Notes under the pieces: model-generated
Seen by the model: the letters and a program-made list of their open reading frames with translations, nothing else
The model's database searches: none
Told to the model about the DNA's origin: nothing
Assembly: GCA_963793005.1 (NCBI GenBank)
Contig: CAWBYP010000006.1
Span: 26,785-90,784, forward strand
Source of the DNA: an uncultured Gammaproteobacteria bacterium
Lineage (GTDB): Bacteria > Pseudomonadota > Gammaproteobacteria > Steroidobacterales > Steroidobacteraceae
DNA: 64,000 bases
Direction of reading: 5' to 3'
Position numbers and translations under genes: made by a program
In this document: positions 15,760 through 42,325 of the stretch, one piece after another
Position numbering within the stretch: the first letter of the stretch is position 1
Layout of the letters: each line of letters starts with the position of its first letter

Positions 15760-15767
15760 GTCGTCGC

Positions 15768-18654: not shown

Positions 18655-18656
18655 GG

Positions 18657-18935: not shown

Positions 18936-18982
18936 CGGCCTGATTGTAGGCCGCATCGACGTGACTCGCCCGGCTCCGGGAC

Positions 18983-19744
18983 TCAGCGCCGGACGACGGC
19001 GACCAGCGGTCGCTCCGGGCGGGCGAGGCAGGCCAGGATCACCCGGTCGAAGCGGTCGGAGAGACCGAGTGCAACTTCGGCCGCCCTCCTCGCAAGCGCC
19101 TCGCGCGTGTCGTCATCGACCATGTTGATCAGCGGCACCACGCACCGCTGTCCGGTTGCCTTCATCATGCCGTCCGGACTGGCCAGCAGCCGTCCCAGGT
19201 GCTCGGCCGTGATCGTCTCGCCCTCGCGGAGACCCGCTACCCGCTCGACATGTCCGACCCGGTGCGCGATGGCCTGGGTCAACGGCTCCCCGATCGCGCG
19301 TGCCGACAGGATGGGCACGACGGTCGTGCAACCCGGCGGCAGCGCGGGCTCGTCGTCCCTGGGCGCCTTCACCATGCGCATCCTCGCGCCGTCGGCCTTG
19401 ACGTAGGTTGCCGCAAATCCGCACTCGCGATGGATTCGCTCAATCGTCGCGGCGCTCGCGCCCGCACGCCGCCCGGGCTTGTCGCCGGGGCAGGCGTACG
19501 CGACGCTCCGCAGAGGGTCGAGGCTCGCCACGCGTGCGGGAAGCTGCTCGTCCTCTTCTATCGCAACAGCGAACCCGAGGTGTTCCTGCGAATATGTCGT
19601 GAAGGCAGTCGCCGTGATCGCGACGCGGCCAGGATGCGTCGTCGCGAGGTGCTGCAGCAGGCTCTTCTTGCCCCCGGCACCGACCGCGCAGACGATTCCC
19701 GTGCGCGCCTCGAGCAGGTCGAGCAGGGACTCGCCAGGGCTCAT
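18983..19744 (-). CDS. YqeC-like P-loop accessory protein (selenium-dependent Mo-hydroxylase accessory family)
   Basis: 253 aa. The opening 'GIVCAVGAGGKKSLL...RVAITATAFTT' matches the YqeC-family opening as I recall it. The assignment needs HMM confirmation. Confidence 0.6.
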   Translation of the reverse strand: MSPGESLLDLLEARTGIVCAVGAGGKKSLLQHLATTHPGRVAITATAFTTYSQEHLGFAVAIEEDEQLPARVASLDPLRSVAYACPGDKPGRRAGASAATIERIHRECGFAATYVKADGARMRMVKAPRDDEPALPPGCTTVVPILSARAIGEPLTQAIAHRVGHVERVAGLREGETITAEHLGRLLASPDGMMKATGQRCVVPLINMVDDDTREALARRAAEVALGLSDRFDRVILACLARPERPLVAVVRR

Positions 19745-19769
19745 CGCCCCACCGCTGCGTCCGGCGGCC

Positions 19770-20879
19770 TCATGACGGCAATTCCACGAAGCGCACGCTC
19801 AGTATTCTTGGCAGGAACTCGGCGACCAGCTCCCATTGTTCGCCATGACTTCGGCTCAGGAACAGGTGCCCCGACGATGTGCCGAAACAAACGTGGCCCG
19901 GCGTGAACCCGCTCGCGTCCATGGCCTCGCGCAGCACCGTGACATATGCGTGCTGCTGGGGCAGCCCGCTCGATACGGACGCCCATGTATTCCCGGCGTC
20001 GGTGCTGCGAAATACGCGCAGCCGTCCATCGACGGTGGCGCGCAGCTGCGAACTGTCCTCGGGCACCTGGTACACGGTGTCGGGTTCGACCGGATCGCAC
20101 ACGATCGCGTAGCCGAAGTCGCTGGGCAGGCCAGCGGTGATCTCCGTCCAGTGCTGTCCGCCGTCGTCGCTGCGATAGGTTCCGTTGTAGCACTGCCGGT
20201 ACAGCCGACGCCCATCCAGGGGATGCATCACCACGCGGTGCACATTGTGTCCGGCCACCGGGTAGCGTTCCGGCAGGTTCTCGGCGCGCACTCCTGAATT
20301 CGCGGGATGCCAGGACTCGCCACCGTCATCGCTGCGGTACACGCCGCCCGCCGACACAGCAACGACGATTCGTCGCGGATCCTGCCGGTCGATGCAGATC
20401 GAATGCATTGCGAACAGGCCGCGCGACGGTTCCCAGGCGTTGCGCGTCTCGTGCTCATTCAGCGACCGGACGTCGCGCCAGCGCGCGCCACCGTCGTCGC
20501 TGGTGAAAAGCCCCGCAGGATCGATGCCGGCGTACAGCCGCTTGCCGTCCGGCGACCATGCGAGATGCCAGACCGAATTCAGCGAGCTCGAAAAACGCTG
20601 CCGGGGATGCTGCGGCGTGGTGTCGAGGCTCGTCCATTCGCTGCCGCCGTCGCGACTGCGATAGATGTGCGAGCCCCATACGGCATGGTCCGCGGTCGCG
20701 AGCATTTCGCCGGAATTCCCCGGGGCCGACACTGTGTGCAGCACGCGGTAGCCGGCAAGCTGCGGTCCATCGACCCGTGGCCCATCGGTGCCGCGGCCCG
20801 GATAGACGCGAAACAGTCCCTTCTCCGTGCCGACCAGCAGCGCGAAGCTGCCAGCGCGTCGCGCTGGCCCCGCGGTCAC
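19770..20879 (-). CDS. BNR/Asp-box repeat beta-propeller protein (sialidase-fold, no signal peptide seen)
   Basis: Five Asp-box motifs are present: 'SRDGGSEW', 'SDDGGARW', 'SDDGGESW', 'SDDGGQHW' and 'STDAGNTW'. The track ORF starts at 20918. A GTG at 20879 overlaps the moaB stop as GTGA, so it is preferred. Confidence 0.75.
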   Translation of the reverse strand: MTAGPARRAGSFALLVGTEKGLFRVYPGRGTDGPRVDGPQLAGYRVLHTVSAPGNSGEMLATADHAVWGSHIYRSRDGGSEWTSLDTTPQHPRQRFSSSLNSVWHLAWSPDGKRLYAGIDPAGLFTSDDGGARWRDVRSLNEHETRNAWEPSRGLFAMHSICIDRQDPRRIVVAVSAGGVYRSDDGGESWHPANSGVRAENLPERYPVAGHNVHRVVMHPLDGRRLYRQCYNGTYRSDDGGQHWTEITAGLPSDFGYAIVCDPVEPDTVYQVPEDSSQLRATVDGRLRVFRSTDAGNTWASVSSGLPQQHAYVTVLREAMDASGFTPGHVCFGTSSGHLFLSRSHGEQWELVAEFLPRILSVRFVELPS

Positions 20880-21439
20880 TTCTCCCTCAGCCGTGGCATC
20901 AGCTCGACGAGGTTGCACGGTCGCGTGCGGGCATCGAGCTGCGCCGCGATCAGCTCGTCCCAGGCCGTGGCGCAGGCGCCGGACGAGCCGGGCACGCAGA
21001 ACACGTAGGTTGCGTTGGCCACGCCGCCGAGGGCGCGCGACTGCAGCGTCGAGGTCTTGATGTCGGCATATGAAATCGAGCGGAACATCTCGCCGAAGCC
21101 GTCGAGTACCTTGTCGAGCAGCGGACGCACGGCCTCGGGCGTTCCATCCCGCCCGGTCACGCCGGTGCCGCCCGTGGTGATGACCGCGTTGACCTCCGGG
21201 TCTGCGATCCAGCGCGATAGCGCCGCGCGGATCTGGTAGATGTCGTCGGGGACGATCAGCTTCTCCGCCAGCCTGTGCCCTGCGCCGGTCAATCGCTCGA
21301 CCAGCAGCTTGCCCGACTTGTCGGACTGCTCGTCGCGCGAATCCGATACTGTGAGTATCGCGATGCTGACCGGCAGGAATTTCCGTTCCCCGCCTCCATG
21401 TGCATAGGACATGCGTTCGCTCCCGTCGATCAATGGCAC
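20876..21439 (-). CDS. moaB: molybdenum cofactor biosynthesis protein MoaB
   Basis: 187 aa. MogA/MoaB fold, with 'IAILTVSDSRDEQSDKSG' and 'ITTGGTGVTGRD'. Confidence 0.88.
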   Translation of the reverse strand: MPLIDGSERMSYAHGGGERKFLPVSIAILTVSDSRDEQSDKSGKLLVERLTGAGHRLAEKLIVPDDIYQIRAALSRWIADPEVNAVITTGGTGVTGRDGTPEAVRPLLDKVLDGFGEMFRSISYADIKTSTLQSRALGGVANATYVFCVPGSSGACATAWDELIAAQLDARTRPCNLVELMPRLREK

Positions 21440-21443
21440 CGGC

Positions 21444-22754
21444 TCAGGCGAGACCGGCGAATGGTTGCACCTCGACCTCGGTGCCCGGCTCCACGTCGCC
21501 CTGCTCGAGCGGCAGGATGATGAAGCAATTGGCCTCGCTCATCGAGCGCAGCACGCCCGCGCCCTGGTGGCCGCTGCTGCGAACCGTATACGCGCCGGAC
21601 GGCCGGCGCTCGAAGCGGCCGCGCTGGAATTCGAGCCGACCTGGTTTCTTGCGGAGTCGCGTCTCGCATTCGGCGCGCAGCAGGATCGGCGGATCATCGT
21701 TCGTCACCCCCATCAGCGCGCGCAGCGCCGGCTGCACCAGCTGGTAGAAAGTCACCATCACGGACACCGGGTTGCCCGGCAGGCCGAAGAAATGGGCCCT
21801 GCCGAAGCGGCCGAATGCGATCGGCTTGCCCGGCTTCATCGCCACTTTCCAGAACCCCACCTGGCCATGCCGCTCCAGCGTCTCCGTCACATAGTCGGCG
21901 TCGCCGACCGACACGCCGCCGGTCGTCACGATCGCGTCGGCCGACCCGGCAGCGGACTGGAACGCGCGCAGCGTGTCTTCGCGAGTGTCCCTGACGACCC
22001 CGAGGTCGACGACCTCGACGCCGAGCCGCGTAAGCATTCCGTGCAGGCTGTAGCGATTGCTGTCGTAGATCTGGCCAGGGCCCAGTTCGTCGCCGATCGG
22101 CCTCAATTCGTCACCGGTCGAGAAAATCGCGACGCGCGGGCGGCGCAGCACCGTGACCTGCCCGACCCCGATCGATGCCAGCAAGCCGAGTTGCGCGGGG
22201 CGCAGCAGCGTGCCGGGCTCGAGCGCGAGCTCGCCACGACGTATGTCCTCGCCAGCGGGCCGAACGTTCTGGCCCTGGTGGTGGCCGGCTTCGATCACGG
22301 CTCGATCACCGTCCAGTCGAACGTGCTCCTGCATCACGACCGTGTCAGTGCCCTCCGGCACCGTCGCGCCCGTCATGATGCGCACGCACTGGCCTTGCTT
22401 CACCGTGCCGCCGAAGGGTCGTCCCGCCCACGAGGTCCCGACGATCCCGAAGGCTGCTTCGCCGGTGCGCGGCAGGTCCTCACCGGCAAGCGCGTAACCG
22501 TCCATCGCCGAATTTCTGTGCGACGGAACGTCCACGCTGGAATGCACCGCGCCCGCCAGCACCCGTCCGAGCGCGGCCTGCAGGCCGACGGTCTCCTCAT
22601 CGGCGACCGGCACGATGTCGGCAACGATCAGCGCCCTCGCCTCTTCCAGCCGCAGGGGCTTCTTGCCATGACCCGGCAGGTCGCAGGGATCGACGCCGGC
22701 CGGCAGTGGATCGTGAACTTTCGTCATCGGTGCGCCCGTCCGTGCATGGTGCAA
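21444..22754 (-). CDS. moeA: molybdopterin molybdotransferase MoeA
   Basis: 436 aa. MoeA N/linker/MPT-binding/C domains, with 'SAMDGYA', 'STGDEL' and 'TTGGVSVGDAD'. An alternative start at 'MTKVHD' (22727) is possible. Confidence 0.92.
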   Translation of the reverse strand: MHHARTGAPMTKVHDPLPAGVDPCDLPGHGKKPLRLEEARALIVADIVPVADEETVGLQAALGRVLAGAVHSSVDVPSHRNSAMDGYALAGEDLPRTGEAAFGIVGTSWAGRPFGGTVKQGQCVRIMTGATVPEGTDTVVMQEHVRLDGDRAVIEAGHHQGQNVRPAGEDIRRGELALEPGTLLRPAQLGLLASIGVGQVTVLRRPRVAIFSTGDELRPIGDELGPGQIYDSNRYSLHGMLTRLGVEVVDLGVVRDTREDTLRAFQSAAGSADAIVTTGGVSVGDADYVTETLERHGQVGFWKVAMKPGKPIAFGRFGRAHFFGLPGNPVSVMVTFYQLVQPALRALMGVTNDDPPILLRAECETRLRKKPGRLEFQRGRFERRPSGAYTVRSSGHQGAGVLRSMSEANCFIILPLEQGDVEPGTEVEVQPFAGLA

Positions 22755-22766
22755 TGCTACCGAGCG

Positions 22767-23396
22767 CTACCCGCGCGTGGAAAGAAATCGCGCCTCGAGT
22801 CGCTGGCGTTCGTCCGGGTCGTTCACGTTGACGAAGGTATCCGGCGCGTCGCTCAAGTCGGCCTCGGCGAGGTTCAACTGCTGGAACCAGGTGTCGATCT
22901 TGCGGCCGCCGGCAGCAAGATACGACTCGAGGCCCGGCGCCACACGGGCGTGCAGCAGCAGGAACACCGGTTGTTGCCGACGCCCGTCCGTCGCCACTGC
23001 GACGTCGGCCTGCGCATCGATACAGGCCTCGTGCATCCGGCGCGCGAGATCATGAGCGACCAGCGGCGCGTCGCAGGGCACGGTCAGCAGGAATTCGGTC
23101 TCGAGGCTGCGCAGGCCGGCGAGCACGCCGGCCAGCGGGCCGAGGAAGCCGTCAAGCGTGTCGGGGACCACCGGGTGACCGAAGGCAGCATAGCGATCGA
23201 GATTCCGGTTCGCGTTGATCAGTACCTGGCCCACCTGCGGCGTCAGCGCGTCGAGCACATACTCGATCATCGGCCTGCCGAGCAGTTCCACGAGCCCTTT
23301 GTCCTGGCCGCCCATGCGACGCGCGAGTCCGCCTGCCAGGACCAGCCCGGTGACAGCGTCCTTCAAAAAGTGCGGTTCCTGGATTGGGGTCGCCAT
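22767..23396 (-). CDS. mobA: molybdenum cofactor guanylyltransferase MobA
   Basis: Start trimmed to 'MATPIQEP'. The sequence 'GLVLAGGLARRMGGQDKGL' is the MobA nucleotide-binding signature. Confidence 0.88.
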   Translation of the reverse strand: MATPIQEPHFLKDAVTGLVLAGGLARRMGGQDKGLVELLGRPMIEYVLDALTPQVGQVLINANRNLDRYAAFGHPVVPDTLDGFLGPLAGVLAGLRSLETEFLLTVPCDAPLVAHDLARRMHEACIDAQADVAVATDGRRQQPVFLLLHARVAPGLESYLAAGGRKIDTWFQQLNLAEADLSDAPDTFVNVNDPDERQRLEARFLSTRG

Positions 23397-23595
23397 TCGT
23401 TGCCAATTCTGCCGACCCGCAGACCGCTTGTCGCTTAAATGCCATCCACTGGCGCAGCGATGGCCGCTACCGAGGACAAATTGACGCACCCGCCGGGACC
23501 GGTTGCGCCATTCTGTCCCAGCACGTAGCCTATTTCACTGTCAGTACCAGCCGCGGAATCGCTGGACGCGGACACACCGGAGAAGAAAAAGAGAC

Positions 23596-25291: not shown

Positions 25292-26230
25292 TCAGGCGGT
25301 CCAGACGATCTCGCCGGACCCCGCCAGGTCATAGCCGCCGAATACCTGGGCCAGGCGCTGGCACTCGGGTCCCCGCAGCACATCGACGAGGTCGCGAAAC
25401 AGCGTGCGGAAATAGACCCCGCGCGACATGGCGAGGTCGAAGGCCTCCCATCCGATCGGCAGGAACTCGAGCCCGAACTCGCCCGCCGCCGCCCTGACCC
25501 CCGGCGCAACGTCGGCCTGCCCGGTCGCAATGGCCGAGGCGGCGTCGCGCTCCGAATAAGCGCGTGCGGTGATCCTGCGGTCCGCGGGATCGAGTCGATG
25601 CTCCGCGATCAGTTCGCGCAGGAAGCGTTGCGACCCGGCTCCCTCCTGCCGCGAAGCCCAGCGGATTCCGGTCGTGAATAATTGCTCGATGCGGCTGTCG
25701 GACGTCCACAGCCCGGGCGTCATGATCAGTCCCTGCTCGCGACGGAACAGCCTCACGAGGATCCAGTCCTTGTGCTGCACGTACTGCCTCAACAGCGCGG
25801 GATGACGCTGCAGGCTTTCGCTCTCGGGCCCCCAGTGCAGCGCGCACACGTCGGCCCGCCGCCGCGCGAGGACCTCGAGGCCGGGTTGCGTGCCGATGGC
25901 CGCGTAACTGACCAGCGCGCGTCCCTGCAGTTCGGCAGCCATCAACGTCACCGCGCGATGCAGCAGCGGGTCGTCGCTGCCGGCGATGACGAGGCGGTCG
26001 GTCAGCAGGCCACCGTGGCTCGACTCCAGCAACCACTGGTCCACGAGGTCGCGCGGGAACAACCACTTGCCGGTCAGCCGCGTCGCCGGGATCCGGCCTT
26101 CGTTGACCAGCGCATACACCTTCTTGTCGTTTATCTGAAGGTAGCGCGCCACCTGCCGCACGTTCATGAAGCGCGGCGTCTCGTGCGGCGGAGTCTCGGC
26201 CGCGGTCGTATCTGGCTTGCTGGCTGGCAT
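25292..26230 (-). CDS. excisionase/MerR-type HTH fused to PBP-like (molybdate/tungstate-binding-like, COG1910-type) domain regulator
   Basis: Start trimmed to 'MPASKPD'. The HTH is 'VRQVARYLQINDKKVYALVNEGRIPATRLTGKWLF'. The remaining roughly 230 aa look like a periplasmic-binding-protein-like fold. Confidence 0.75.
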   Translation of the reverse strand: MPASKPDTTAAETPPHETPRFMNVRQVARYLQINDKKVYALVNEGRIPATRLTGKWLFPRDLVDQWLLESSHGGLLTDRLVIAGSDDPLLHRAVTLMAAELQGRALVSYAAIGTQPGLEVLARRRADVCALHWGPESESLQRHPALLRQYVQHKDWILVRLFRREQGLIMTPGLWTSDSRIEQLFTTGIRWASRQEGAGSQRFLRELIAEHRLDPADRRITARAYSERDAASAIATGQADVAPGVRAAAGEFGLEFLPIGWEAFDLAMSRGVYFRTLFRDLVDVLRGPECQRLAQVFGGYDLAGSGEIVWTA

Positions 26231-26442
26231 TCGCGGACTCCTCGCGGGATCGCCGTGTGCGCATCGGCGGCGCCGCACTGCGCCATCGATATACGAGTCA
26301 TCTGCAAGATTCGTACCCTGCGCCCGGCCTGTTGCCTGGCCATACGCCTGGCCGGGCCATCCACCCGCCTGCCCATCGGGATGCCGGCTGGTGCAGAATG
26401 AACGGCGTCGGCTCGTCGGGCCGTCCAGTGGGAGTGAGGCCA

Positions 26443-26931
26443 ATGCCCGTGGAACCAAGAATCAGCCTGCCCGTGGCCGTGATCATGGGCCGCAGGATGG
26501 TTGCGGGCCAGGGCTGGCGGGTGCCGAGCTGGCGCGTCGTGGCGCTCGTGGCCGGGTCCGGGCTTCCGGGCAAGGAAGCGCAGGGCACGCCGGTCCGCGG
26601 TGACGACGACGAAGAACATTTCCTCTGGGGCGGGCTCCGGCTCGACCTGTACCGTGACGCGGCCGAGAGTTACTGGGTCAACCTGACCGGGCGGCAGCCC
26701 TCGCTTTACGTGCTGTGCAGCGAGGATGAGCAGTCCAGGATCATTCCCACGCTCGTGACCGCGGACCAGAACGAGGCCTGCTCGGGCGTAGAAGGCGACG
26801 ACCGCGTGTTTTCAGCGGCGATTCCCCCGGAGATCTACCAGCACCTCGAGGCATTCGTGGTCGAGTACAACGTTCCACAGCAAAAGCGCAAGCGCAAGCG
26901 CACGGACTGGTCTGCGAGCGAGGAATCGTGA
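26443..26931 (+). CDS. DUF3305-like protein (FDH-associated)
   Basis: Start trimmed to 'MPVEPRISLPVAVIM', with a GGAGTGAGG RBS. The sequence includes 'YWVNLTGRQPSLYVL' and a KRKRKR tail. The family call is from memory. Confidence 0.65.
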   Translation: MPVEPRISLPVAVIMGRRMVAGQGWRVPSWRVVALVAGSGLPGKEAQGTPVRGDDDEEHFLWGGLRLDLYRDAAESYWVNLTGRQPSLYVLCSEDEQSRIIPTLVTADQNEACSGVEGDDRVFSAAIPPEIYQHLEAFVVEYNVPQQKRKRKRTDWSASEES

Positions 26932-30320: not shown

Positions 30321-33206
30321 ATGAAGCTGGTCAAGAAGCAAGACGTCAGAACAGCTGAATCCACACCCGCCACCGGCGGGCTGCTGGGCCGCACCATCGA
30401 CCGGCGCACCTTCCTGCGCCGCACCGGAATGGCGGCCGGCGGCGCAGCCGTCGCCACCACGGTCTCGATGCGCATGATGAGACGGGCAGATGCCGCGTCG
30501 CCCGACGCAGCTGACGGCGACGCCGAGACCCGGCGCTCGATCTGCACGCACTGCTCGGTCGGCTGCGGAATCATCGCAGAGGTGCAGAACGGCGTCTGGA
30601 CCGGACAGGAGCCGGATTTCGACTCGCCCTTCAACCTCGGCGGCCATTGCGCCAAGGGCGCTGCGGTCCGCGAGCACGGCCACGGCGACAAGCGGCTCAA
30701 GTACCCGATGAAACTCGTGGGCGGCAAGTGGCAGCGCCTTTCCTGGGACGATGCGATCAACGAGATTGGTGACAAAGTGCTCTCGATCCGGGAGCAGAAC
30801 AGCCCGGACTCCGTCTACTGGCTTGGCTCGGCGAAGTTCTCCAACGAGCAGGCCTACCTGTACCGCAAGTTCGCCGCGATGTGGGGCACCAACAACGTCG
30901 ACCACCAGGCGCGCATCTGCCATTCGACCACGGTCGCAGGCGTAGCCAATACCTGGGGCTACGGCGCGATGACCAACTCCTACAACGACATGCACCTGTG
31001 CAAGTCGATGTTCTTCATCGGCAGCAACGCCGCCGAGGCGCACCCGGTCGCGATGCAGCACATCCTGCGCGGCAAGGAGAATGGCGCGAAGCTGATCGTC
31101 GTCGACCCGCGCTTCACGCGCACGGCGGCGCACGCCGACCAGTACATCCGGCTGCGCTCCGGCACCGACGTCCCGCTGATCTGGGGCGTGCTGTGGCACA
31201 TCTTCGAGAACGGCTGGGAAGACAAGGAGTACATCAGCCAGCGCGTCTTCGGCATGGACGAGATCCGCGCGGAAGTCGCGAAGTGGACACCCGACGTGGT
31301 CGAGAACGTCACCGGCGTGCCGGCTGATCAGGTCAAGCTTGCGGCCCAGACCATGGCCGAGAACCGGCCCGGTACCATCGTCTGGTGCATGGGCGGCACC
31401 CAGCACACGATCGGTAACAACAACACCCGCGCGTACTGCATCCTGCAGCTCGCGCTGGGTAACATCGGCACCGCTGGCGGCGGTGCAAACATCTTCCGTG
31501 GCCACGACAACGTGCAGGGCGCGACCGACCTGGGCGTTCTGTCCGATACGCTGCCCGGTTACTACAGCCTGGCCGAAGGCGCGTGGAAGCACTGGTGCAA
31601 GGTGTGGGACCTCGACTACGAGTGGGTGAAGGCCCGCTTCGACCAGGCGAGCTACGAAGAGGGCAAGGACATGACGCCCTCGATGTTCCTGCGCGGCATC
31701 ACGGTTTCGCGCTGGATCGACGGCGTGATGGAGCCGGCCGAGAACATGGCGCAGAAGGCCCCGATCAAGGCCATGTTCATGTGGGGCCACGCGCCCAACA
31801 GCCAGACCCGCGGCCCCGAGATGAAAAAGGCCATGGAAGCGCTCGAGATGCTGGTCATCGTGGACCCGTATCCGACGCACTCCTCCGTGCTGCCCGACCG
31901 GCAGGACGGCATCTACCTGCTGCCTGCGGCCACGCAGTTCGAGACCTATGGGTCGGTGACCGCGTCGAACCGCTCGCTGCAGTGGCGCGAGAAGATCATC
32001 GACCCGCTGTTCGAGTCGCTGCCCGACCACGTCATCATGTACAAGTTCGCGAAGAAGTTCGGCTTCGAGGAGCAGTTGACCAAGCACATAAAGGTCAACG
32101 GCGAGGAACCGCTGATCGAGGACATCCTGCGCGAGATCAACCGCGGCATGTGGACCGTCGGCTATACCGGCCAGAGCCCCGAGCGCCTCAAGCTCCACAT
32201 GGAGAACAAGCACACCTTCAACACCACGACGCTGAAGGCCGAGGGCGGCCCCTGCGACGGCGACTACTACGGCCTGCCGTGGCCCTGCTGGGGCACTCCG
32301 GAGATGAAACACCCGGGCTCGCCGAACCTTTACGACACCAGCAAGACCGTGGCGGAAGGCGGCATGCCGTTCCGTGCGCGGTTCGGTGTCGAGTACCAGG
32401 GCAAGAACCTGCTGTCCGAGGGCTCCTGGAGCAAGGGTTCCGAGATCCAGGACGGCTACCCGGAGTTCACGGCCGACATGCTGAAGCAGCTCGGCTGGTG
32501 GGAAGACCTGACAGCGGACGAAAAGACTGCTGCCGAGGGCAAGAACTGGAAGACCGACCTGTCCGGCGGCATCCAGCGCGTCGCCATCAAGCACGGTTGC
32601 GCGCCGTACGGCAATGCCAAGGCACGCTGCATCGTCTGGACGTTCCCGGACCCGGTGCCGATCCACCGCGAGCCTCTCTATACGTCGCGCTATGACCTCG
32701 TGGCGCAATACCCGACCTACGAAGACAGGAAGCGCTTCTGGCGACTGCCCACGCGCTACATGTCGATCCAGGCCAAGGACTATTCCGGCGACTATCCGCT
32801 GATCCACACCAGCGGCCGCCTGGTCGAATACGAGGGCGGTGGCGCCGAGACTCGCTCGAACAAGTGGCTCGCGGAGCTGCAACAGCACATGTTCGCCGAG
32901 ATCAACCCGGCCGACGCGAACGACCGCGGCATCAAGGACGGCCAGTGGATATGGCTCGAAGGGCCCGAGGGCGGCCGAATCAAGATCATGGCGATGGTCA
33001 CACCGCGCGTCGGCAGGGGCGTGGTGTTCACGCCCTACCACTTCGGCGGCTGGTACGAGGGCACGGACCTGTTGCCGAAGTACCCCGAAGGGACGGCCCC
33101 CTATGTGCGGGGCGAAGCCGCCAACACGGCGTTCACCTACGGCTACGACTCGGTGACTGCAATGCAGGAAACCAAGGCGTCGCTCTGCCAGATCACGCCA
33201 GCCTAG
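30321..33206 (+). CDS. periplasmic (Tat-exported) formate dehydrogenase alpha subunit, Cys type
   Basis: 961 aa. Tat signal 'DRRTFLRRTGMAAGGAAV', 4Fe-4S motif 'CTHCSVGCG' and active site 'HQARICHSTTVAG'. The active-site position holds Cys, with no in-frame TGA. Confidence 0.95.
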   Translation: MKLVKKQDVRTAESTPATGGLLGRTIDRRTFLRRTGMAAGGAAVATTVSMRMMRRADAASPDAADGDAETRRSICTHCSVGCGIIAEVQNGVWTGQEPDFDSPFNLGGHCAKGAAVREHGHGDKRLKYPMKLVGGKWQRLSWDDAINEIGDKVLSIREQNSPDSVYWLGSAKFSNEQAYLYRKFAAMWGTNNVDHQARICHSTTVAGVANTWGYGAMTNSYNDMHLCKSMFFIGSNAAEAHPVAMQHILRGKENGAKLIVVDPRFTRTAAHADQYIRLRSGTDVPLIWGVLWHIFENGWEDKEYISQRVFGMDEIRAEVAKWTPDVVENVTGVPADQVKLAAQTMAENRPGTIVWCMGGTQHTIGNNNTRAYCILQLALGNIGTAGGGANIFRGHDNVQGATDLGVLSDTLPGYYSLAEGAWKHWCKVWDLDYEWVKARFDQASYEEGKDMTPSMFLRGITVSRWIDGVMEPAENMAQKAPIKAMFMWGHAPNSQTRGPEMKKAMEALEMLVIVDPYPTHSSVLPDRQDGIYLLPAATQFETYGSVTASNRSLQWREKIIDPLFESLPDHVIMYKFAKKFGFEEQLTKHIKVNGEEPLIEDILREINRGMWTVGYTGQSPERLKLHMENKHTFNTTTLKAEGGPCDGDYYGLPWPCWGTPEMKHPGSPNLYDTSKTVAEGGMPFRARFGVEYQGKNLLSEGSWSKGSEIQDGYPEFTADMLKQLGWWEDLTADEKTAAEGKNWKTDLSGGIQRVAIKHGCAPYGNAKARCIVWTFPDPVPIHREPLYTSRYDLVAQYPTYEDRKRFWRLPTRYMSIQAKDYSGDYPLIHTSGRLVEYEGGGAETRSNKWLAELQQHMFAEINPADANDRGIKDGQWIWLEGPEGGRIKIMAMVTPRVGRGVVFTPYHFGGWYEGTDLLPKYPEGTAPYVRGEAANTAFTYGYDSVTAMQETKASLCQITPA

Positions 33207-33219
33207 GAGAGACTCGATC

Positions 33220-33810
33220 ATGGCTCGTATGAAATTCCTGTGTGATTCCGAGCGCTGCATCGAATGCAACGGCTGCGTGACAGCGTGCAAGAACGAGAAT
33301 GACGTACCCTGGGGCGTGAACCGCCGCCGGGTGGTCACGCTCGACGACGGCGTGCCCGGCGAGCACTCGATCTCGGTCGCCTGCATGCATTGCACGGACG
33401 CGCCGTGCGCGGCGGTATGCCCGGTGGACTGCTTCGTCACGACCGCGGACGGAGTCGTGCTGCACGACAAGGACCTCTGCATCGGCTGCGGCTACTGCTT
33501 CTATGCGTGTCCCTTCGGCGCGCCGCAGTACCCTCAGAAAGAGGCCTTCGGCGTGCGCGGCAAGATGGACAAGTGCACGTTCTGCTCCGGCGGTCCCGGC
33601 GACGGCACCCCCGAGGAGCAGTACGAGAAGTACGGCTCCAATCGAGTCGCCGAGGGCAAGTTGCCGTTGTGCGCGGAGATGTGTGCGACCAAGGCGCTGC
33701 TCGCGGGCGACGCCGACGTCGTGTCCGACATCTACCTGGAGCGCGTCTCGAAGCGCGACGGCCGGCCGCAGAGCTGGGGCTGGTTGACCGCGTACCAGGA
33801 TGAAGTGTGA
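33220..33810 (+). CDS. fdh3B: formate dehydrogenase iron-sulfur (beta) subunit
   Basis: 196 aa. Motifs 'CIECNGCVTACK', 'CMHCTDAPCAAVCP', 'CIGCGYCFYACP' and 'CTFC...CAEMC'. Confidence 0.92.
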   Translation: MARMKFLCDSERCIECNGCVTACKNENDVPWGVNRRRVVTLDDGVPGEHSISVACMHCTDAPCAAVCPVDCFVTTADGVVLHDKDLCIGCGYCFYACPFGAPQYPQKEAFGVRGKMDKCTFCSGGPGDGTPEEQYEKYGSNRVAEGKLPLCAEMCATKALLAGDADVVSDIYLERVSKRDGRPQSWGWLTAYQDEV

Positions 33811-35174: not shown

Positions 35175-35202
35175 AGGGGGCGCGCAAGCGCCCCCTGACT
35201 TT
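35175..35202 (+). terminator. rho-independent terminator
   Basis: The stem GGGGGCGC / GCGCCCCC has the loop GCAA and is followed by TGACTTTT. It lies 25 nt after the FDH gamma stop. Confidence 0.65.
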
Positions 35203-35346
35203 TGACGAACATGGTCCTGCAAACGGGCCCCGGTCGGGTCGGGTACGCCACGCTGGTTGGATCCGAATTGCCAGGTTGGACACATGCCCCCCGGCGTGTA
35301 ACCTCCAACGACTCACGCGGCGGTGTTCCGCCGGGGATCGAAGCAC

Positions 35347-36084
35347 ATGCGCTGCCTGATCGGCATCGACGACACCGACAACCTGGAGAGCCGGGGAACC
35401 GGCTTTCGCGCCCGCCAGCTCGGCGCGCGTCTCGCCGAGGCCGGGCTCGGCCGGGCACGCGGCATCACGCGGCACCAGCTGTACGTGCACTCGTCCATTC
35501 CATACACGTCCCACAACAGCTCGGCGTGCCTCGACGTGGATATTGACAAGGCGCGCCTGGACGCCGTGCGTGACTTCTGTCGCGACTACCTGGCACAGGA
35601 AAGCGCGGAAGGCTCGGACGCAGGCCTGTGCCTCGCGGGCTTCGATGCCGTCGCCGATGAGCTGGTCGCATTCGGACGCAGCGCGAAAGACACTATCCGC
35701 ACTCAGGCCGAAGCCCGCGACCTCGCGGCTCGCCACGGTGCCCACCTCGAGGGAGTCACCGGGGACCAGGGGGGCGTGATCGGCGCACTGTCGGCCGTCG
35801 GCCTGCGACGCGGGGGCCACGATGGGCGATTCATCTGGCTCGAAGGCGTGCGCGAGCTGACCGGCACGATGACGGCGGGTGCACTGGTCGCCACGACTGG
35901 CATAGACTCTGTCGAAACGACCGACGGCCACCCGCTTCCAGAGGACGCGGTGGTGCTCGTGGATCCATGGCCGCGTCCCGTGCTGCTGCACGGCAAGGCC
36001 GTGCTGCTTACGGAGAAGAACGGGGATGGGCACGAACATGGCGGCTGGAAAATCCTCTGCAAGGAAGCTATTCGGCGTTATTGA
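35347..36084 (+). CDS. TiaS-kinase-domain-like (DUF1743-like) protein
   Basis: The sequence 'MRCLIGIDDTDNLESRGTGFRARQL...RHQLYVHSSIPYTSHNSSACLDV' mirrors the archaeal TiaS N-terminal pattern 'IGIDDTDS..G.CTT...IPY(K/T)' as I recall it. Start taken at ATG 35347. Confidence 0.55.
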   Translation: MRCLIGIDDTDNLESRGTGFRARQLGARLAEAGLGRARGITRHQLYVHSSIPYTSHNSSACLDVDIDKARLDAVRDFCRDYLAQESAEGSDAGLCLAGFDAVADELVAFGRSAKDTIRTQAEARDLAARHGAHLEGVTGDQGGVIGALSAVGLRRGGHDGRFIWLEGVRELTGTMTAGALVATTGIDSVETTDGHPLPEDAVVLVDPWPRPVLLHGKAVLLTEKNGDGHEHGGWKILCKEAIRRY

Positions 36085-36607
36085 CCTGGTCGGGCCGCTG
36101 ACGGCAGGTCGGGCGCTGTTCCTGGCATCGCTGGGCGTGACCATTGTCGCGCTGGAGCGGGGCTTCAACTGGTCACTGCAGCTGCCAGGCCACCATGGCC
36201 TCGAGGCCATGGCGCTGCTGGTGCTGGCGCGCCTCAGTTGCACCAATCCCTGGTCTGCGACGCTGGTGGGAGCCAGTGCCGCGGTGGCCGCGCCGTTCCT
36301 CGGGGCCAGCCACGGAGTGCTGATGCCACTGTTCTACGTGCTGCCGGGGCTGGTACTGGACCTCGGTTATCGGCTCTCGCCGCGTTTCGGCAGGGCGCTG
36401 TTGTTCCTTCCTGTGCTCGCGGCGCTGGCCTATGCAGCAAAGCCGGCGGTTCGCGTATTTGCGAACCAGGCGCTCGGAATGCAGTTCGGCTCGCTGCGCG
36501 CCGGGCCGGTCTACCCGATCATCACCCACCTGCTGTTCGGATTCCTCGGCGCACTGGCCGCGGTGCTGGTGTGGCGGGCCACAGAAAAACGACTGCCGCA
36601 CCAGTAG
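36026..36607 (+). CDS. polytopic membrane protein, unknown function
   Basis: 193 aa with 5-6 hydrophobic helices. It overlaps the preceding gene by 47-59 nt, depending on whether the start is 36026 or 36038. Confidence 0.55.
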   Translation: MGTNMAAGKSSARKLFGVIDLVGPLTAGRALFLASLGVTIVALERGFNWSLQLPGHHGLEAMALLVLARLSCTNPWSATLVGASAAVAAPFLGASHGVLMPLFYVLPGLVLDLGYRLSPRFGRALLFLPVLAALAYAAKPAVRVFANQALGMQFGSLRAGPVYPIITHLLFGFLGALAAVLVWRATEKRLPHQ

Positions 36608-36673: not shown

Positions 36674-38880
36674 CTAGAGCCTGAACTCCGCGCCCAGCAC
36701 GTAGGCGCGCCCTGGCTGCGGGAATCCGTAGGATTCGGCGTAGTCTTCGTCGAGCGCATTGAGGATTCGCGCGAACGCCCGCATGCGCCGCTGCATCAGC
36801 TCGATCGATGCATCCAGGTTGAGCACTCCGAAATCTCCAAGCTCCAGGGCCGTGGTCGGCGACGTGCGCGACAGCGTGTAGCTGTCGGCGAAATACCGGT
36901 AGTCACCGCCGAGCCGGATCGTCGGCGTCAACTCGTAATCGACTCGCAGCGAGAATTTCTGCTCGGGCCTGTTCTGAAGCGTCTTGATGTCGGCGTCGCT
37001 GGACCGGTTCTCGGACTCCATGTAGGTGTAGCTCATGTCCAGGTCCAGCCGCTCGGCGACCCGGTAGCTCGCGGACAATTCGACGCCCTTGAACCGGTAC
37101 TTCTGGAAGTTCTCCGTGATCCCGTTCGGGACGCGCTCGATGAAGTCATTGGCGTCGATCCGGAACAGCACGCCCTCGACCGAAAGCCCGGCCGAGGCGA
37201 AATCGTGCCTCAATGCGAGGTCGTAGCTGTAGGTCGTCTCGGCGGAGAGATCCGGATTGCCGCGGTCAACCGCATAGAGGTCGCGAAGTGTCGGGTAGCG
37301 CTGCTTGCGGGACGCATTGCCGCGAAGGGTCGTCGCCCCGCCGAGCCTGTAGTCGGCGCCAAGCAGGTACGAGATTCCGCCGTCGTCCTGCCCGGAGTCC
37401 CGAGTCTGCTCGCTGTAACCGAGGCCAGCGACCAAGCCCAGCGCTGGTGTTGCCTGGTACTCGCTCTCGACGTCCAGCGAGTAGAGGTTGACGGACTCAT
37501 CCTGGTCGACCGGCGTAACAACCGTGGTCGTGCCGCCACCACCGCCGCCGCCGCCTCCTCCACCGCCACCGCCACCACCGCCGCCGCCTCCTCCACCGCC
37601 AGCCGCGTGGTGGTCGTGACCGAGAATCCGCTGGAGTTCCAGCTCTCGTGCCGGCCGCTCAACGAGGCGGACAGCAGCAATTCATTGGCGAAGCGCCTGG
37701 AGGCCAGCACGCTGGCGCCAAGCACCTCGGTCGTGGCGTTCTCGCGGAACGAGCCGCTCGCGACCTGGCTGTCGTAGCCCGCGTCGTCGTAGCCGTTCGT
37801 GTCCTCCGCATCGCGATTGAAATACACGGTCGGCTTGACGGAGCCGGACTCGCCCGCGCCGAATTCCGCCGCCGCCTGCGCGGAAAACGAGTCGAGTTCG
37901 ACGCGCTCGTACCTCGCTCGATTGGCATATATCGAATCACTGTTGTCTATCACGGTCGGCGGCTTGCCGTACTCGGCATTGCGGTACGACAGGCTCAAGC
38001 CGATATCCGGGCCACCTTCGCTGAACATCATGTTGGCCTGTACCGCGTTCTGCCTGCGATCGCTGTTGACGCGTTCGTCTCCCGGCTGCAGGTCATTGTT
38101 CGGGAAATCGCCGGACAGTTCGAAGTAGTCACGATCGAAGGACGACCCCCACAGCGACAATCCCGCCCCGCCAAGCTGCCCGCTGACAGAACCGCGAACC
38201 TCGTAGGCCTTGGACCACTCGTACTCGCCGGCGACGTTCGCGCGCACCGCATCACCCGCCGACTTGGTGATGATCTCGATCACGCCGGCGTTGCCGCCCG
38301 GGCCATAAAGCACCGAACTACCCCCGCGCGTCACCTTGATCTCGGCGATGTTCTCGGCCGGGATCAGCGCAGGGTCGAACTGCCCGTCGAAGCCGGAGTT
38401 CAGCGGAACGCCGTCCTGCAGCAGGATGATGTTCCGGGTGCGCAGGCCGCGAACGTCGATCCTTGGAACACCGTCCGCGCCGTAGCGCACGTACATGCCC
38501 GGCAGCAGCGCAATGGCCTGGTCGAGCGTACGCACGCCGCGCCGGGCGATGTCCTCGGCGGTCACCGTGTCGACGGTTGCCACCTCGTCGGCGATCCGGG
38601 GACGCTCACCGACGACCGTGATCGTCTCGCCCAGCCAGTAGGCGCCGCTTGCCTCGGACGTGGACGCGCCACCCGCCGCGGGCGCTTCTTTTGATGAACC
38701 ACCCTCCACGGCGGCAGTGTCTTGACCGGGCGACGCCCCGGAGGCAGCCGACACCGGCGCCGGCTGGTCTTCCGTAGCGGCTGCCTGCTGCGCAGACACA
38801 TTGCCTGCACTTGCGAGGCCGGCCAGCGTCAACAGGGCCATCCAGCGCCACGACTGCGTGTTTCTGTCGGTAATGGTCAT
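36674..38880 (-). pseudogene. TonB-dependent receptor, reading frame broken at an internal poly-Gly tract
   Basis: The 37210-38979 ORF holds the signal peptide 'MTITDRNTQSWRWMALLTLAGLASA', the plug ('ETITVVGERP', 'RGGSSVLYGPGGNAGVIEI') and the first part of the barrel. The 36674-37435 ORF holds the barrel C-terminus in another frame ('GTTTVVTPVDQDESVNLYSLDVESEY...' continues upstream of its TTG). Confidence 0.85.
37532..37600 (-). repeat. 23 consecutive GGY/GGA glycine codons; imperfect tandem duplication of a unit of about 33 nt
   Basis: The minus strand reads ggc ggt gga gga ggc ggc ggc ggt ggt ggc ggt | ggc ggt gga gga ggc ggc ggc ggc ggt ggt ggc ggc. This is in the frame of the C-terminal receptor segment. 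Confidence 0.9.
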
Positions 38881-38902
38881 TTGAATCCCGTACGCATCAG
38901 TT

Positions 38903-38917
38903 TTTATTGAAAATAAA
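38903..38917. promoter_or_regulatory. perfect palindrome TTTATT-GAA-AATAAA in the AT-rich leader of the TonB-dependent receptor
   Basis: Read directly from the sequence. It lies 23-37 nt upstream of the receptor ATG (38880). Confidence 0.35.
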
Positions 38918-38982
38918 GCGTACCAAAGATTTCCTGCAGGTAAATAGTACTTTTGAATACCGCCAAGCCATGGCCGCAACGG

Positions 38983-41900
38983 CTAGCCGACCAGCACATC
39001 CTCGCGCAGGCGGGCCGTCGCCTCGGAAAGCAGGTACCGCGCCGCGGCATCGCCCTCGTGCGCCCGCAGGACCTGGCCCAGCAGCGCTATGGCCTCCGAG
39101 TACAGCCGGGCCTCGTAGTGCTGTTGCGGCACGCTCGAATGCGGCACGCGTATCGAGCTTGTGCGCGGCCAGGTCCGGCGCATCGAACTCGAATGCTTCG
39201 TGCAGCACCACGGCCTCGTTGCGGCCCTTGACGACAACCCGGCCCAGCGCACGACGCCTGGGCAGCGCGCTCTCCGCATCGGACAGGTTCTCGAGGAAGG
39301 CCTCGCTCACGATCACGGCGCTGCCGTAGGTCTTCGTCATGCCTTCGATGCGCGAGGCCACATTGACCGCGTCGGCAAAGATGTCGCCCTGGCGGCGCTG
39401 CAGTTCGCCGACGATGCCGAGTCGCAGGCGCCCGAGGTGCATGCCGATGCCGATGCGTATCGACGGCTGCCCCTTGCGTTCGCGCTCCAGGTTGAACTGC
39501 GCGAGGCTCGCCATCGTGTCGCGCGCCGCACGGAGCGCATCGTCGGCACCGCCCGCGAACACCGCCATCACGCTGTCGCCGGTGTATCGATCGATGAAGC
39601 CGCCGTTCCTGCGGATCGGCGGTCCTGCAATGGCAAGATAGCTGTTGATGAACGTGAAGTTCTCATCCGGGGTCATGTGCTCCGACAGTGTCGTGAAGTC
39701 GCGAATGTCGGATATGAGCACCGCCGCTTCCATCTCCACGTTGTCGCCGAGCTGTACGTCTATGATGCTGTCGCGCTTCAGGTAGCGCAGGAACTCGTGC
39801 GGGACGTAGTGCGAATAGGCTGAATTGATGCGCACCAGGTTGAGGTGGGTCTTGATGCGCGCGAGCAGTTCGCCCTTGGCAACCGGCTTGGTGATGTAGT
39901 CATTGGCGCCGACCTGCAGTCCCAGTTTCAGGTCCGCCATCTGGGTCCGGGCCGTGACCATAACGACCGGCAACTGCGTCGGCAGGTGCGTCCTGCGGAT
40001 CTCCCGGCAGACCTCGAAACCGGACAGCTTCGGCATCATGACATCGAGCAGCACCAGGTCGACTTTCTCGCCACCGGCCAGCAGCTCGAGCGCACGCATG
40101 CCGTTCTCGGCCTGCAGCACGTCATAGTGCTGCAGCGACAGGTGATTCAGCATCACCTGCTGGTTCACCGGCTCGTCGTCGACCACCAGGATGCGGATGC
40201 GGTCGTCGCTGCTCGCGGGGCCGCCATCATCGTCGATCTGCGGCACTACCGACGCCTGGACCGACAGCGCACGGCCAAGCCGCGGACCGTGCGCGGGCTC
40301 GGGTGCGACCTGCCTCCCGGGTTCCTGCTCCTCCTTCAGGACCGGGTGCGCTTCCTCCGCTTCGCTCGCCGTGGCGGCCGGCAGCACGAAGCTGAATGTC
40401 GACCCCTGCCCGACCCGTGACTCGAGATCGATGCTGCCGCCATGCAACTGCACGAGGTTGCGCGTCACGGCAAGACCGAGCCCGGTGCCGCCGTGAACGC
40501 GCGTGGCTGATTCCTCGACCTGCTCGAATGACTCGAAGATGCGTTCACGGTCCTCGTCGGCTATGCCGGGACCGGTGTCGATGACCTGCACCCTGACCCG
40601 TCCGCCCTCGTCGATGGCCCGCACGCGCACCGAGCCGGCGTCGGTGAACTTGACCGCGTTGCCGATCAGGTTGTGCAGGATCTGCTGCAGCCTGTCCTCG
40701 TCGGCCAGCACGCTGGGCACGCTGTCGTCGACCTCGTTGATGAGCTCGAGCGACTTGACCTCGGCCAGCGGTGCGCTCAGCCGCATGACTACGTCCGCTG
40801 CCACGCGGAGGTCTACTGCCTTCTTGCGCAGGACCAGCTCATGGGTCCTCATCTTGGAGAAATCCAGGATGTCGTTGACCAGCGACGCCAGGCGCTGCCC
40901 GCTGTTGACGATCATCGACAGGTTGCTGGCGGCCGCTTCGCTGATCCTGCCGGCTGCACCGTCCAGCATCGACTCGGCCAGCCCGATGATGCCCTGCAGC
41001 GGGGTACGCAACTCGTGCGAGGTGTTGGCCAGGAACTCGTCCTTGAGCCTGTCCATGCGCCGCAGGCTCTCGGCCACCTCGTGCTGTGCCCGCTCCTTGG
41101 CCTGCTTCATCTCGTTGTAGCGATCCGACAACGCAAAGGAGATCAACACTGTTTCCAGCACGGCTCCCATTTCCATGCCGTGCACGGCAACGAAACTGTT
41201 GTCCACGAATCCATGCTGGCGCGCCGCGGCAAACACGGTCCCGATGCAGTAACCCGCCCACGCGACCAGGTAATAACGCGCCGAGCGCTGGCCGCGCAGC
41301 AGGCACACGACGGCGGTGACCAGGCCGGCGGTCCCGGCGGCTGCCGACACCGCGCCGGTCAGGTGGATTGAAAACTGGAATCCGGTCAGCGCGGACAGCG
41401 GCACTGTCAGCACTGCCAGTGCCATCAGCACGAGGATCGTCTTGTGCAGGCCGGGCGCGTACTGCCTGGCCTGCAGGAAGCGGGTACAGAACGCGAGCCC
41501 GGCGACCAGCGTCACCGCAACGATGACCTGGAAGATCTCCTCCGACCATGGCCGGTAGTCGGGCCACAACCAGCGCGGCGCGTGGCCGCTGAGGCTGGCC
41601 AGGAACAGGCCCGTGGCGGTGATCGAAATGACATACAGCAGGTAGTTCGTGTCGCGCAGCGAAACGAACAGGAACAGGTTGTACAGGCACATGGCCACCA
41701 TGATCCCGAACATGGCGCCGTAGCCCAGGAAGCTGGCCATGCTCGCCTTGTAGAACTGCTGGGCGGTCAGCAGCCTCAGGTCGACCAGCATGCTGCTCTG
41801 GCTCTGGATGCGCAGGTAGTAGGTCGTCACGCGATCCGGTGCCGGCGCGACCCGCAACACGGGCGTGAGCGCATCCAACACATCCGGCGACAGTGAGTGG

Positions 41901-42325
41901 TGGTCGCCGAGCCGGGTCTCCCGCCACTGGCCGCCGGCAGTTTCCTGGTAGACCTGCACGTCGTCCAGCAACGGATCGGTGACCTGCAGCAACCACGCGT
42001 TGTCCTTGACGCTGCGATTGCGCACGTCGAAACGCAGCCACACCGCACCCTTGATGAACCCGAGCGCGATACCGCGCGGGCCGCTGCGGCGGAATGCGTC
42101 TTCGGGGAGTTGCTGGATCTCCGCAAGCGTAGCCTCGCCACTTTCGTCGACGAGGTATTCGAACGTCGGGCGATAACCAGGCCCCTGCTCGTCGCGCAGT
42201 TCGAGAGGCTCGGCGCTCGCCAACGTGGCGAACAGCAGGCCGAACGACAGCAGCGAACCCAGTCGCATTCGGCGAATCGATAGGGTAGCCTCGCCGGCAA
42301 TCAGTTTTCGGTCAGCGGGGGTCAT
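38983..42325 (-). CDS. 7TMR-DISM sensor histidine kinase - receiver - class III adenylate/guanylate cyclase; C-terminal about 50 codons shifted in this assembly
   Basis: The domain order is as follows. 7TMR-DISMED2-like N-terminus plus 7 TM. HisKA 'TSHELRTPL'. HATPase 'GGTGLGLAV'. Receiver 'LVLLDVMMPKLSG'. Cyclase 'VLISDIRDFT', 'DRYTGDSVMAVF' and 'GDIFADAVNVASRIE'. The natural tail 'QQHYEARLYSEAIALLGQVL...REDVLVG*' is in the 38983-39279 ORF frame. A signal-like start 'MRLGSLLSF' at 42268 is possible. Confidence 0.88.

Follow-up and report, generated by a model that had tools for sequence, protein, structure and literature searches.

We describe two overlapping genes, here termed A and B, in a 64,000-nucleotide stretch of DNA from an uncultured gammaproteobacterium of the family Steroidobacteraceae (assembly GCA_963793005.1, contig CAWBYP010000006.1, positions 26,785 to 90,784). 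The whole stretch is called the window below, and coordinates refer to it unless another locus is named. Gene A encodes a cytoplasmic protein whose N-terminal part resembles the ATP-using domain of the archaeal tRNA-modifying enzyme TiaS, and gene B encodes a membrane protein that resembles the S-components of energy-coupling factor (ECF) transporters. The two genes are paired across many bacterial phyla, usually together with a gene for a TonB-dependent receptor, and they are embedded among genes of tungsten and molybdenum (W/Mo) metabolism. The overall best explanation, and in our view probably the right one, is that A and B, with the receptor where there is one, form an undescribed W/Mo acquisition module. 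That W/Mo acquisition is the purpose of the module we regard as quite probable, while a specific role of A in capturing or activating the substrate is proposed only tentatively. The substrate may possibly extend to vanadate or to a chelate of W/Mo/V anions. The features on which the argument turns are as follows.

35347..36084, plus strand: gene A, with an ATG start, encoding a cytoplasmic protein of 245 amino acids (aa)

36026..36607, plus strand: gene B, encoding a protein of 193 aa with six transmembrane (TM) helices and, in a structure model, an ECF S-component-like fold

36026..36084, plus strand: dual-coding stretch in which the 3′ end of A and the 5′ end of B overlap out of frame

An earlier note on this DNA, made from the sequence alone, had suggested that A and a membrane protein with five or six TM segments, overlapping it by 47–59 nt, form a two-gene module, and each part of this suggestion agrees with what we found. 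The overlap is 59 nt, or 47 nt if counted from a second ATG of B at 36038, and B is modelled with six TM helices. The sequence GGAG lies upstream of the first ATG of B, at 36026. We took 80 loci with A from a collection of species-representative genomes, clustered all of their open reading frames (ORFs) and named the clusters. A homologue of B is found downstream of A in 74 of the 80 loci; of the six others, two stop at a contig end, which leaves 78 assessable loci. In one of the 74 (L035) the B homologue is non-adjacent, at 2.7 kb from A. The relative frame of the overlap is identical in all 37 adjacent pairs compared, which come from many phyla, and in each of the 37 the codon of a conserved glycine of B (Gly8) is placed 38, 41 or 44 nt before the end of the stop codon of A. 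This fixed register implies that the stretch is dual-coding and that the genes are translationally coupled, and most likely that the two proteins form a stoichiometric complex.

The distribution of the two genes is both wide and patchy. Loci with A and B occur in at least six phyla, among them the Gamma-, Alpha- and Betaproteobacteria, Bacteroidota, Chloroflexota, Cyanobacteria, Acidobacteriota and Actinomycetota, and others. Within the genus of the source organism, A is encoded by 7 of 25 genomes and B by exactly those seven. B was found in none of the remaining relatives among the 41 searched, and neither gene was found in 16 other genera of the order. One of the 41 (G040) is marked as unpublished, and none of our conclusions rests on it. 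Of 300 other high-quality genomes sampled from the phylum, one encodes A. Among the carriers, Nitrobacter winogradskyi, Tolypothrix tenuis PCC 7101 and Lentisalinibacter sediminis are culturable. Two observations concern the integrity of the genes. In N. winogradskyi NBRC 14297 (L030:4653-5425), two short ORFs that match pieces of A lie just upstream of an intact A-B-receptor set, and appear to be left over from another copy that is now broken. The gene for B is in two pieces in one genome of the genus (G003:C4:296060-296627, profile positions 1-148 and 138-190), through either a frameshift or an assembly error.

The likeness between A and TiaS is seen at several levels. As a single sequence, A matches TiaS in the PDB with an E-value of 0.005; with a profile of 40 A homologues, the match improves to 3e-9 for Pyrococcus furiosus TiaS and 1.4e-8 for that of Archaeoglobus fulgidus. 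The AlphaFold model of A (pLDDT 92, pTM 0.90) assigns residues 1-155 to a TiaS-like, ATP-using domain. Foldseek aligns this model to TiaS structures with an E-value of 5e-10 over 156 columns (root-mean-square deviation (rmsd) 2.2-2.5), and VIA does so with Z 21.7 over 153 residues (rmsd 1.9), whereas the next unrelated fold scores Z 8.1. On these model-based comparisons, the N-terminal part of A has the true fold of the TiaS kinase domain, termed TCKD (Thr18-Cyt34 kinase domain; Pfam PF22641; structures PDB 3AMT, 3AU7, 4RVZ, 5XOB and 3U02), with a similarity far beyond chance. The shared fold covers 153-156 residues at 22-26% identity, and A and TiaS further have in common a GIDDTD motif, Thr18, an IPY loop and a G-x-IGALA helix. 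The aspartates of the motif (D8, D9 and D11) and T18 occupy the same alignment positions as the TiaS residues and are invariant in the 40 homologues. In TiaS, Asp8, Asp9 and Asp11 are reported, in papers of 2011, to be the ligands of Mg-ATP and Thr18 the threonine that is autophosphorylated.

In other respects A departs from TiaS. It ends at residue 245 and lacks the OB and zinc-ribbon domains, and Pfam has no family for A itself and gives no match to the ferredoxin-like domain (PF08489) that comes after the TCKD in TiaS, whereas the true TiaS proteins retrieved by the A-family profile have 469-510 aa, carry PF01336, PF23783 and PF08489, and reach E-values of only 2e-9 to 2e-6. The NCBIfam model of TiaS (NF040849) gives A 21.4 bits against a cut-off of 600 (E 7.9e-5, residues 1-153). 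Also unlike TiaS, A is found in bacteria, where it is coupled to a membrane protein and lies in a W/Mo gene context, and its genome has TilS (TIGR02432, 154.9 bits, with the cut-off at 93.6). The presence of TilS implies that the substrate of A differs from that of TiaS. The earlier note had anticipated much of this, namely the resemblance to the N-terminal kinase domain of TiaS, the stand-alone size of about 245 aa without OB and zinc-ribbon parts, and a different substrate should the genome encode TilS, and all three points hold. A is thus not a TiaS, and probably not a tRNA modifier. Its TCKD fold and the retained Asp triad and Thr18 are what one would expect if A modified tRNA or the cytidine of some other RNA, as TiaS does. 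However, the missing OB and zinc-ribbon domains, the TilS of the genome, the obligatory coupling to a membrane protein, the lack of translation genes nearby and the patchy occurrence (one of the 300 other sampled genomes of the phylum, and absence from 18 of the 25 genus genomes) make this extremely unlikely.

The named family that scores highest with A is a different one, methanogenesis marker protein 11 of NCBIfam (TIGR03280; E 3.9e-11, 42.6 bits, cut-off 255.8). Residues 2-154 of A align to profile positions 134-283, the C-terminal half of that family, so marker 11 contains another TCKD-like domain. The first 133 profile positions have no counterpart in A, and marker 11 is restricted to methanogens. 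A literature search on marker 11 found no paper.

The A family is large, with more than 4500 clusters at 90% identity. At 50% identity there are 405 clusters with E<=1e-30, nearly all of about 245 aa. The N-terminus of the protein reads MRCLIGIDDTDNLESRGTGF, in agreement with the letters quoted by the earlier note, and its opening is also written MRCLIGIDDTDN. The ATG at 35347 is backed by the N-termini of the 40 homologues, which do not support an alternative upstream GTG at 35323. Across these diverse homologues, the residues I7, D8, D9, T10, D11, N12, T18, G19, R23, R42, H43, Q44, L45, T54, N57, S58, S90, D91, G93, G139, G143, I145, G146, L153, D159, G160, R161 and W208 are invariant, and the cysteines C61, C78 and C95 nearly so. 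Many of these are specific to the family: N12, R23, R42-H43-Q44, a T-S-H-N-S-S loop, S90-D91, D159-G160-R161, W208 and the three cysteines. That A has an invariant set of its own, with three near-invariant cysteines, argues for a second substrate unlike that of TiaS. Residues ~157-245 are modelled as a beta-rich domain with one helix, and an Atlas search with the C-terminal 90 residues gave no usable match.

Longer forms of A are rare. In one, A is fused to an EcfT/CbiQ domain (P0272), which puts A on the cytoplasmic side of transporters of the ECF type; in another, PadR and PBP_like domains precede A (P0276); and in a third, A is joined to a Peripla_BP_2 domain (P0271), which is typical of binding proteins for iron complexes or B12. 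There is also a paralogous subfamily (P0264, P0274, P0275, P0187 and P0205), in which DGE(L/F/V)KG replaces DGRF(I/L)W and which has a Cys-rich C-terminal tail, C-x-N-C-x-x-R-R-W-T ... C. Three clusters of this Cys-tailed subfamily (P0264, P0274 and P0275) join A to an FAD enzyme that resembles glycerol-3-phosphate dehydrogenase and has a BFD [2Fe-2S] domain.

The nature of B, like the TonB-dependent receptor in the set and the embedding among W/Mo genes, goes beyond what the earlier note had seen. The structure model of B (pLDDT 89.7) was compared by VIA with 48,161 chains, and the top 15 matches are all ECF S-components, with Z from 15.2 to 8.1. YkoE leads (Z 15.2 over 162 residues), followed by ThiT (12.5), HmpT (11.4), RibU (11.2) and BioY (11.0); below BioY stand PanT, NikM, FolT and CbiM, and BtuM has Z 8.1. 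With Foldseek, the best match is again YkoE (5EDL, E 5e-3) and the high-probability matches are nearly all S-components, while an Atlas search led, at 0.92, to a cluster named 'putative ECF S component'. B has no match in Pfam or NCBIfam at E<=0.1 and so lies outside the described sequence families of S-components. Its only invariant sequence feature is P-G-x-x-G (here LPGHHG, residues 53-58), which lies in the TM1-TM2 loop and has H, R, W, Q or N at each x, depending on the lineage. The positive-inside rule places the loop on the outer side of the membrane, and it corresponds to the substrate lid of S-components.

The locus has no ECF genes, and EcfT (PF02361) has no match in the genome, which is 99.7% complete. 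B must then act as a solitary S-component, like BtuM. BtuM works with the receptor BtuB in the uptake of cobalamin (PMC6072759). The parallel extends to the six-helix fold, to a genome without an ECF module and to the TonB-dependent receptor that usually adjoins B, but B differs from BtuM in having no cobalamin riboswitch and in being translationally coupled to a cytoplasmic partner of the TCKD type. The oxyanion class of substrate that we propose for B is without known parallel among S-components.

The want of an EcfT or ECF module raises the question of what might drive B. One answer is that A is purely an energiser, that is, a non-ABC ATPase or kinase that drives the toppling or gating of solitary B and leaves the substrate chemically untouched. 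The stoichiometric complex implied by the fixed gene overlap agrees with this, as does the EcfT-A fusion. On the other hand, the TCKD fold has no known precedent as a transport motor, and the invariant polar and Cys residues outside the ATP site (R23, R42-H43-Q44, T54, N57, S58, S90-D91, C61, C78 and C95) suggest that A has a second small ligand. We therefore consider a purely energising role unlikely.

The W/Mo acquisition proposal rests in part on gene neighbourhoods. In the source genome, A and B close the main W/Mo block, a 24-kb region with two formate dehydrogenases (FDHs), MoeB, MoaB, MoeA, MobA and a PBP_like regulator; the only other W/Mo genes of the genome are a TupBCA-like operon and a MoaA/MoeB pair. 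Across the 80 loci we counted genes for ModE-like proteins, TupA, WtpA, MoeA, MoaA, MoeB, aldehyde:ferredoxin oxidoreductase, FDH and NifEN. In a strict single-query tblastn search, 40 of the 80 loci have at least one such explicit W/Mo gene within 6 kb. As a background control, the same queries match 1.6% of 12.7-kb segments drawn at random from this genome, which corresponds to an enrichment of about 30-fold at the A-B loci, and the gene sets differ between phyla.

Particular neighbours recur in particular lineages. In 17 loci, the gene immediately before A encodes a short protein (~115-125 aa) with a ModE repressor domain. Regulators with ArsR/HTH and PBP_like domains are found in 13-14 loci, and this PBP domain type is the one fused to A in P0276. 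In 13 loci, most of them from Chloroflexota, TupA-like binding proteins are encoded together with ABC ATPases; within the genus, TupA-like genes occur in five of the seven genomes with A and B and in 2 of the 18 without. In Bacteroidales, the neighbours include WtpA (above its cut-off), MoeA, a MoaA-like radical-SAM protein, MoeB and aldehyde:ferredoxin oxidoreductase, which is a tungsten enzyme, and in close relatives of the source organism FDH lies beside A and B. In the heterocystous cyanobacteria Tolypothrix tenuis PCC 7101 (L075:1-4010) and Brasilonema (L023), the set of regulator, A, B and receptor is adjoined by genes for NifH, NifE (above its cut-off) and a NifN-like protein, and thus stands beside genes for the assembly of the nitrogenase cofactor, with Mo or possibly V as its metal. 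The nifE and nifN genes beside the module suggest that the factor common to these contexts is a metal oxyanion rather than a pterin.

This last point bears on a rival explanation, in which the module salvages a pterin-type precursor (molybdopterin, cyclic pyranopterin monophosphate or a product of breakdown). The receptor and B would import it in the manner of a vitamin, and A would phosphorylate or otherwise activate it in the cytoplasm, so that it is trapped in metabolism as in the case of PnuC with NadR. The S-components nearest to B (YkoE, ThiT, RibU, BioY, PanT, FolT and BtuM) carry organic cofactors or their precursors, the TCKD of TiaS acts on a pyrimidinone carbonyl, to which the pterin ring is similar, and genes for the biosynthesis of the molybdenum cofactor (Moco) are common neighbours. 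However, neighbours specific for the oxyanion (TupA, WtpA and ModE-type regulators) are equally frequent, the cyanobacterial module stands beside nifH-nifE-nifN, whose products need molybdate and not a pterin, and a search for Moco riboswitches in the window and in 12 of the loci found none. We judge pterin salvage to be improbable.

The receptor suggests another possible cargo. A single family of TonB-dependent receptors adjoins A and B in 55 of the 80 loci, usually in the same direction and just after B, and its best named relatives are of the BtuB type. The module might therefore import cobalamin, an iron chelate or another metal, with the W/Mo neighbours being coincidental; BtuM, as a solitary S-component that works with BtuB (PMC6072759), and the Peripla_BP_2 domain joined to A in P0271 would fit such a role. 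Against it, the receptor scores 131 bits where the BtuB cut-off is 600, there is no cobalamin riboswitch in the window or the 12 loci, and the neighbours are W/Mo genes, with an enrichment that is about 30-fold and arises from different gene sets in different phyla. Coincidence of this kind seems very unlikely.

The regulators next to A suggest a further alternative. A could be a W/Mo sensor or a regulatory kinase, for instance the ligand-sensing partner of regulators that have only the N-terminal part of ModE and no Mop domain, or else a gate-keeper of B. The ~115-125-aa ModE-repressor-domain proteins encoded directly upstream of A in 17 loci and the PadR-PBP_like-A fusion are in line with such a role. 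However, 63 of the 80 loci have no such regulator, whereas hardly any locus lacks B, whose translation is coupled to that of A, and we give a sensory role for A little credence.

We thus return to W/Mo acquisition. In the lineages that have no receptor (Chloroflexota, Actinomycetota and a metagenome-assembled genome of the Bacillaceae), A is immediately preceded in 12 loci by a gene for a small lipoprotein (examples are L039:5543-5998, L083:5454-5909 and L037:5395-5982). The lipoprotein carries a lipobox Cys, and its C-terminal ~100 aa form a conserved domain that ends in ...KD(I/V)xxIxVK. It has no match in Pfam or NCBIfam, and its profile gave only signal-peptide noise against the PDB; it is a candidate for the extracellular capture protein of the system. 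In Bacteroidota, the receptor is flanked by a ~300-aa lipoprotein of no known family and by a protein sorted by the type IX secretion system (T9SS). The fullest arrangement is seen on a Bacteroidales chromosome (L061:5542-12735) and in about 17 similar loci, as a cassette that encodes, in order, a ModE-domain protein, A, B, the ~300-aa lipoprotein and the TonB-dependent receptor. The receptor gene is followed there by genes for a ~280-aa protein with a T9SS sorting tail, for MoeA and for a MoaA-like radical-SAM protein, and on the upstream side of the cassette lie genes for aldehyde:ferredoxin oxidoreductase, a PpnP-like protein and MoeB.

The analysis shows the two folds, the conservation of the catalytic residues, the obligatory pairing and the setting among W/Mo genes, and from these we infer the substrate, the contact between A and B and what ATP is spent on, and hence the chemistry of A, as follows. 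The TonB-dependent receptor would take a scarce species across the outer membrane, and in monoderm-type lineages the small lipoprotein would stand in its place. B would bind this species under the lid formed by its TM1-TM2 loop, in which the P-G-x-x-G motif is accompanied by anion-friendly donors (H, R, W, Q or N), and would carry it across the inner membrane. A, made in a fixed ratio with B by means of the conserved gene overlap, would dock on the cytoplasmic side and spend ATP, through the machinery of Asp8, Asp9, Asp11 and Thr18, to take over or activate the anion. This use of ATP would render uptake one-way, and the anion would be handed to the pathways of Moco and of the iron-molybdenum cofactor (FeMoco) of nitrogenase.

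To our knowledge, the known uptake of W and Mo by bacteria consists essentially of three ABC systems, ModABC, TupABC and WtpABC, and a literature search found no publication on the A family. The A-B module shares gene neighbourhoods and regulators (of the ModE and PBP_like types) with these systems. Unlike them, however, many A-B loci have no periplasmic binding protein of their own and have a TonB-dependent receptor instead. What we propose for A may also be likened to the ATP-dependent Mo storage protein (MosAB, or MoSto), a kinase-fold protein that spends ATP on an oxyanion and so provides a precedent for this. Neither A nor B is homologous to any ABC component or to MosAB. It is conceivable, although we regard it as rather doubtful, that the module is a primary uptake system of a new class, in which a TiaS-type kinase domain, and not an ABC ATPase, powers a carrier of the S-component type. 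Together with the receptor, this would be a fourth high-affinity route for W/Mo, perhaps also for vanadate, and it might select W over Mo.

Several points weigh against W/Mo acquisition. The function is deduced solely from neighbourhood and fold. Half of the 80 loci have no explicit W/Mo gene within 6 kb, as judged by the strict single-query test. An Rfam scan for Moco and cobalamin riboswitches gave no match in the window, and in the 12 loci it gave only an unrelated SAM riboswitch. The genome has a TupBCA-like ABC importer, so that A and B are not needed as its sole route for W/Mo. Within the genus, ModA is encoded by three of the seven carriers of A and B and by 12 of the 18 non-carriers, which is no clean anticorrelation; moreover, related genomes are non-independent samples, and the genus counts given here and above are only suggestive. 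(On account of this mixed ModA pattern, we rejected the idea that A and B simply displace ModABC within the genus.) Finally, as far as we know, S-components transport vitamins and the cations of Ni and Co, not oxyanions, and TCKD chemistry is known to us solely on the carbonyl of cytidine.

The scavenging of W and Mo at trace levels, their passage through the outer membrane and the separation of W from Mo have so far been poorly understood. The module unites a TonB-dependent receptor, a carrier fold of vitamin import and an ATP-using fold known hitherto only from archaeal tRNA modification. If the proposal is true, it adds a new transport architecture and a second, non-RNA function for the TCKD fold, as well as a testable handle on the supply of trace metals to formate dehydrogenases, aldehyde oxidoreductases, nitrite oxidoreductase and nitrogenase in environmental bacteria.

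The remaining elements of the locus, from the W/Mo block to the receptor gene, are the following.

12985-17342, minus strand: NAD-type FDH alpha subunit, above its NCBIfam cut-off, and a NuoF-like subunit, below it

17539-23489, minus strand: MoeB, YqeC, MoaB, MoeA and MobA, all above their NCBIfam cut-offs

25295..26458, minus strand: regulator with HTH_17 and PBP_like (PF12727) domains, 9 kb from A and B

30321-33206, plus strand: FDH alpha subunit exported by the twin-arginine translocation (Tat) pathway, a Mo/W bis-molybdopterin guanine dinucleotide (bis-MGD) enzyme

33220-33810, plus strand: beta subunit of the same FDH

Ending at 35150, plus strand: cytochrome b gamma subunit of FDH (TIGR01583, 188.6 bits, with the cut-off at 115.85)

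35176..35203, plus strand: putative G+C-rich hairpin, GGGGGCGC-GCAA-GCGCCCCC, followed by TGACTTTT, as read from the sequence and kept in close relatives

35276..35306, plus strand: candidate promoter or operator, TTGGAC-N17-TAACCT, in which GTGTAACCTCC is nearly invariant in an alignment of 12 close relatives

36674..38979, minus strand: TonB-dependent receptor with Plug and beta-barrel domains, convergent with A and B

Between the PBP_like regulator and the Tat-exported FDH lie genes for DUF3305, DUF3306 and a polyferredoxin. The window contains no ModE-type regulator, and neither ModA nor WtpA is found in the genome. The YqeC-type gene (18986-19744, minus strand), which stands between those for MoeB and MoaB, belongs to a family annotated as 'selenium cofactor biosynthesis' (129 bits against a cut-off of 73) and hints at an enzyme with a selenium-modified molybdenum cofactor in this organism.

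The hairpin directly follows the stop codon of the FDH gamma gene and, on sequence grounds, is likely a terminator that divides the FDH operon from A and B; a simple terminator scanner missed it because its T run is short. The TTGGAC-N17-TAACCT element is located 43 nt before the ATG of A and falls under the threshold of a consensus promoter scan; neither a consensus sigma-70 promoter nor a textbook ModE box was found upstream of A. With the hairpin and this conserved element before them, A and B look like a transcription unit of their own.

The receptor gene has a change of frame in a poly-glycine tract (GGC/GGT/GGA) at about 37582-37606, within the stretch 37532-37625 on the minus strand. 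The alignment with an intact orthologue from L011 runs in frame -3 as far as residue 429, and from residue 439 onward it is in frame -2. The change could be an insertion or deletion introduced into the repeat by assembly or sequencing, or it could be a real and possibly phase-variable frameshift; the receptor gene of a relative (L005) also has a frame change. Beside the receptor gene lies an ORF (38897-42325, minus strand) for a protein of 1142 aa that, from a reading of its translation, combines a putative sensor region with seven TM helices, a histidine kinase, a receiver and a nucleotide cyclase.

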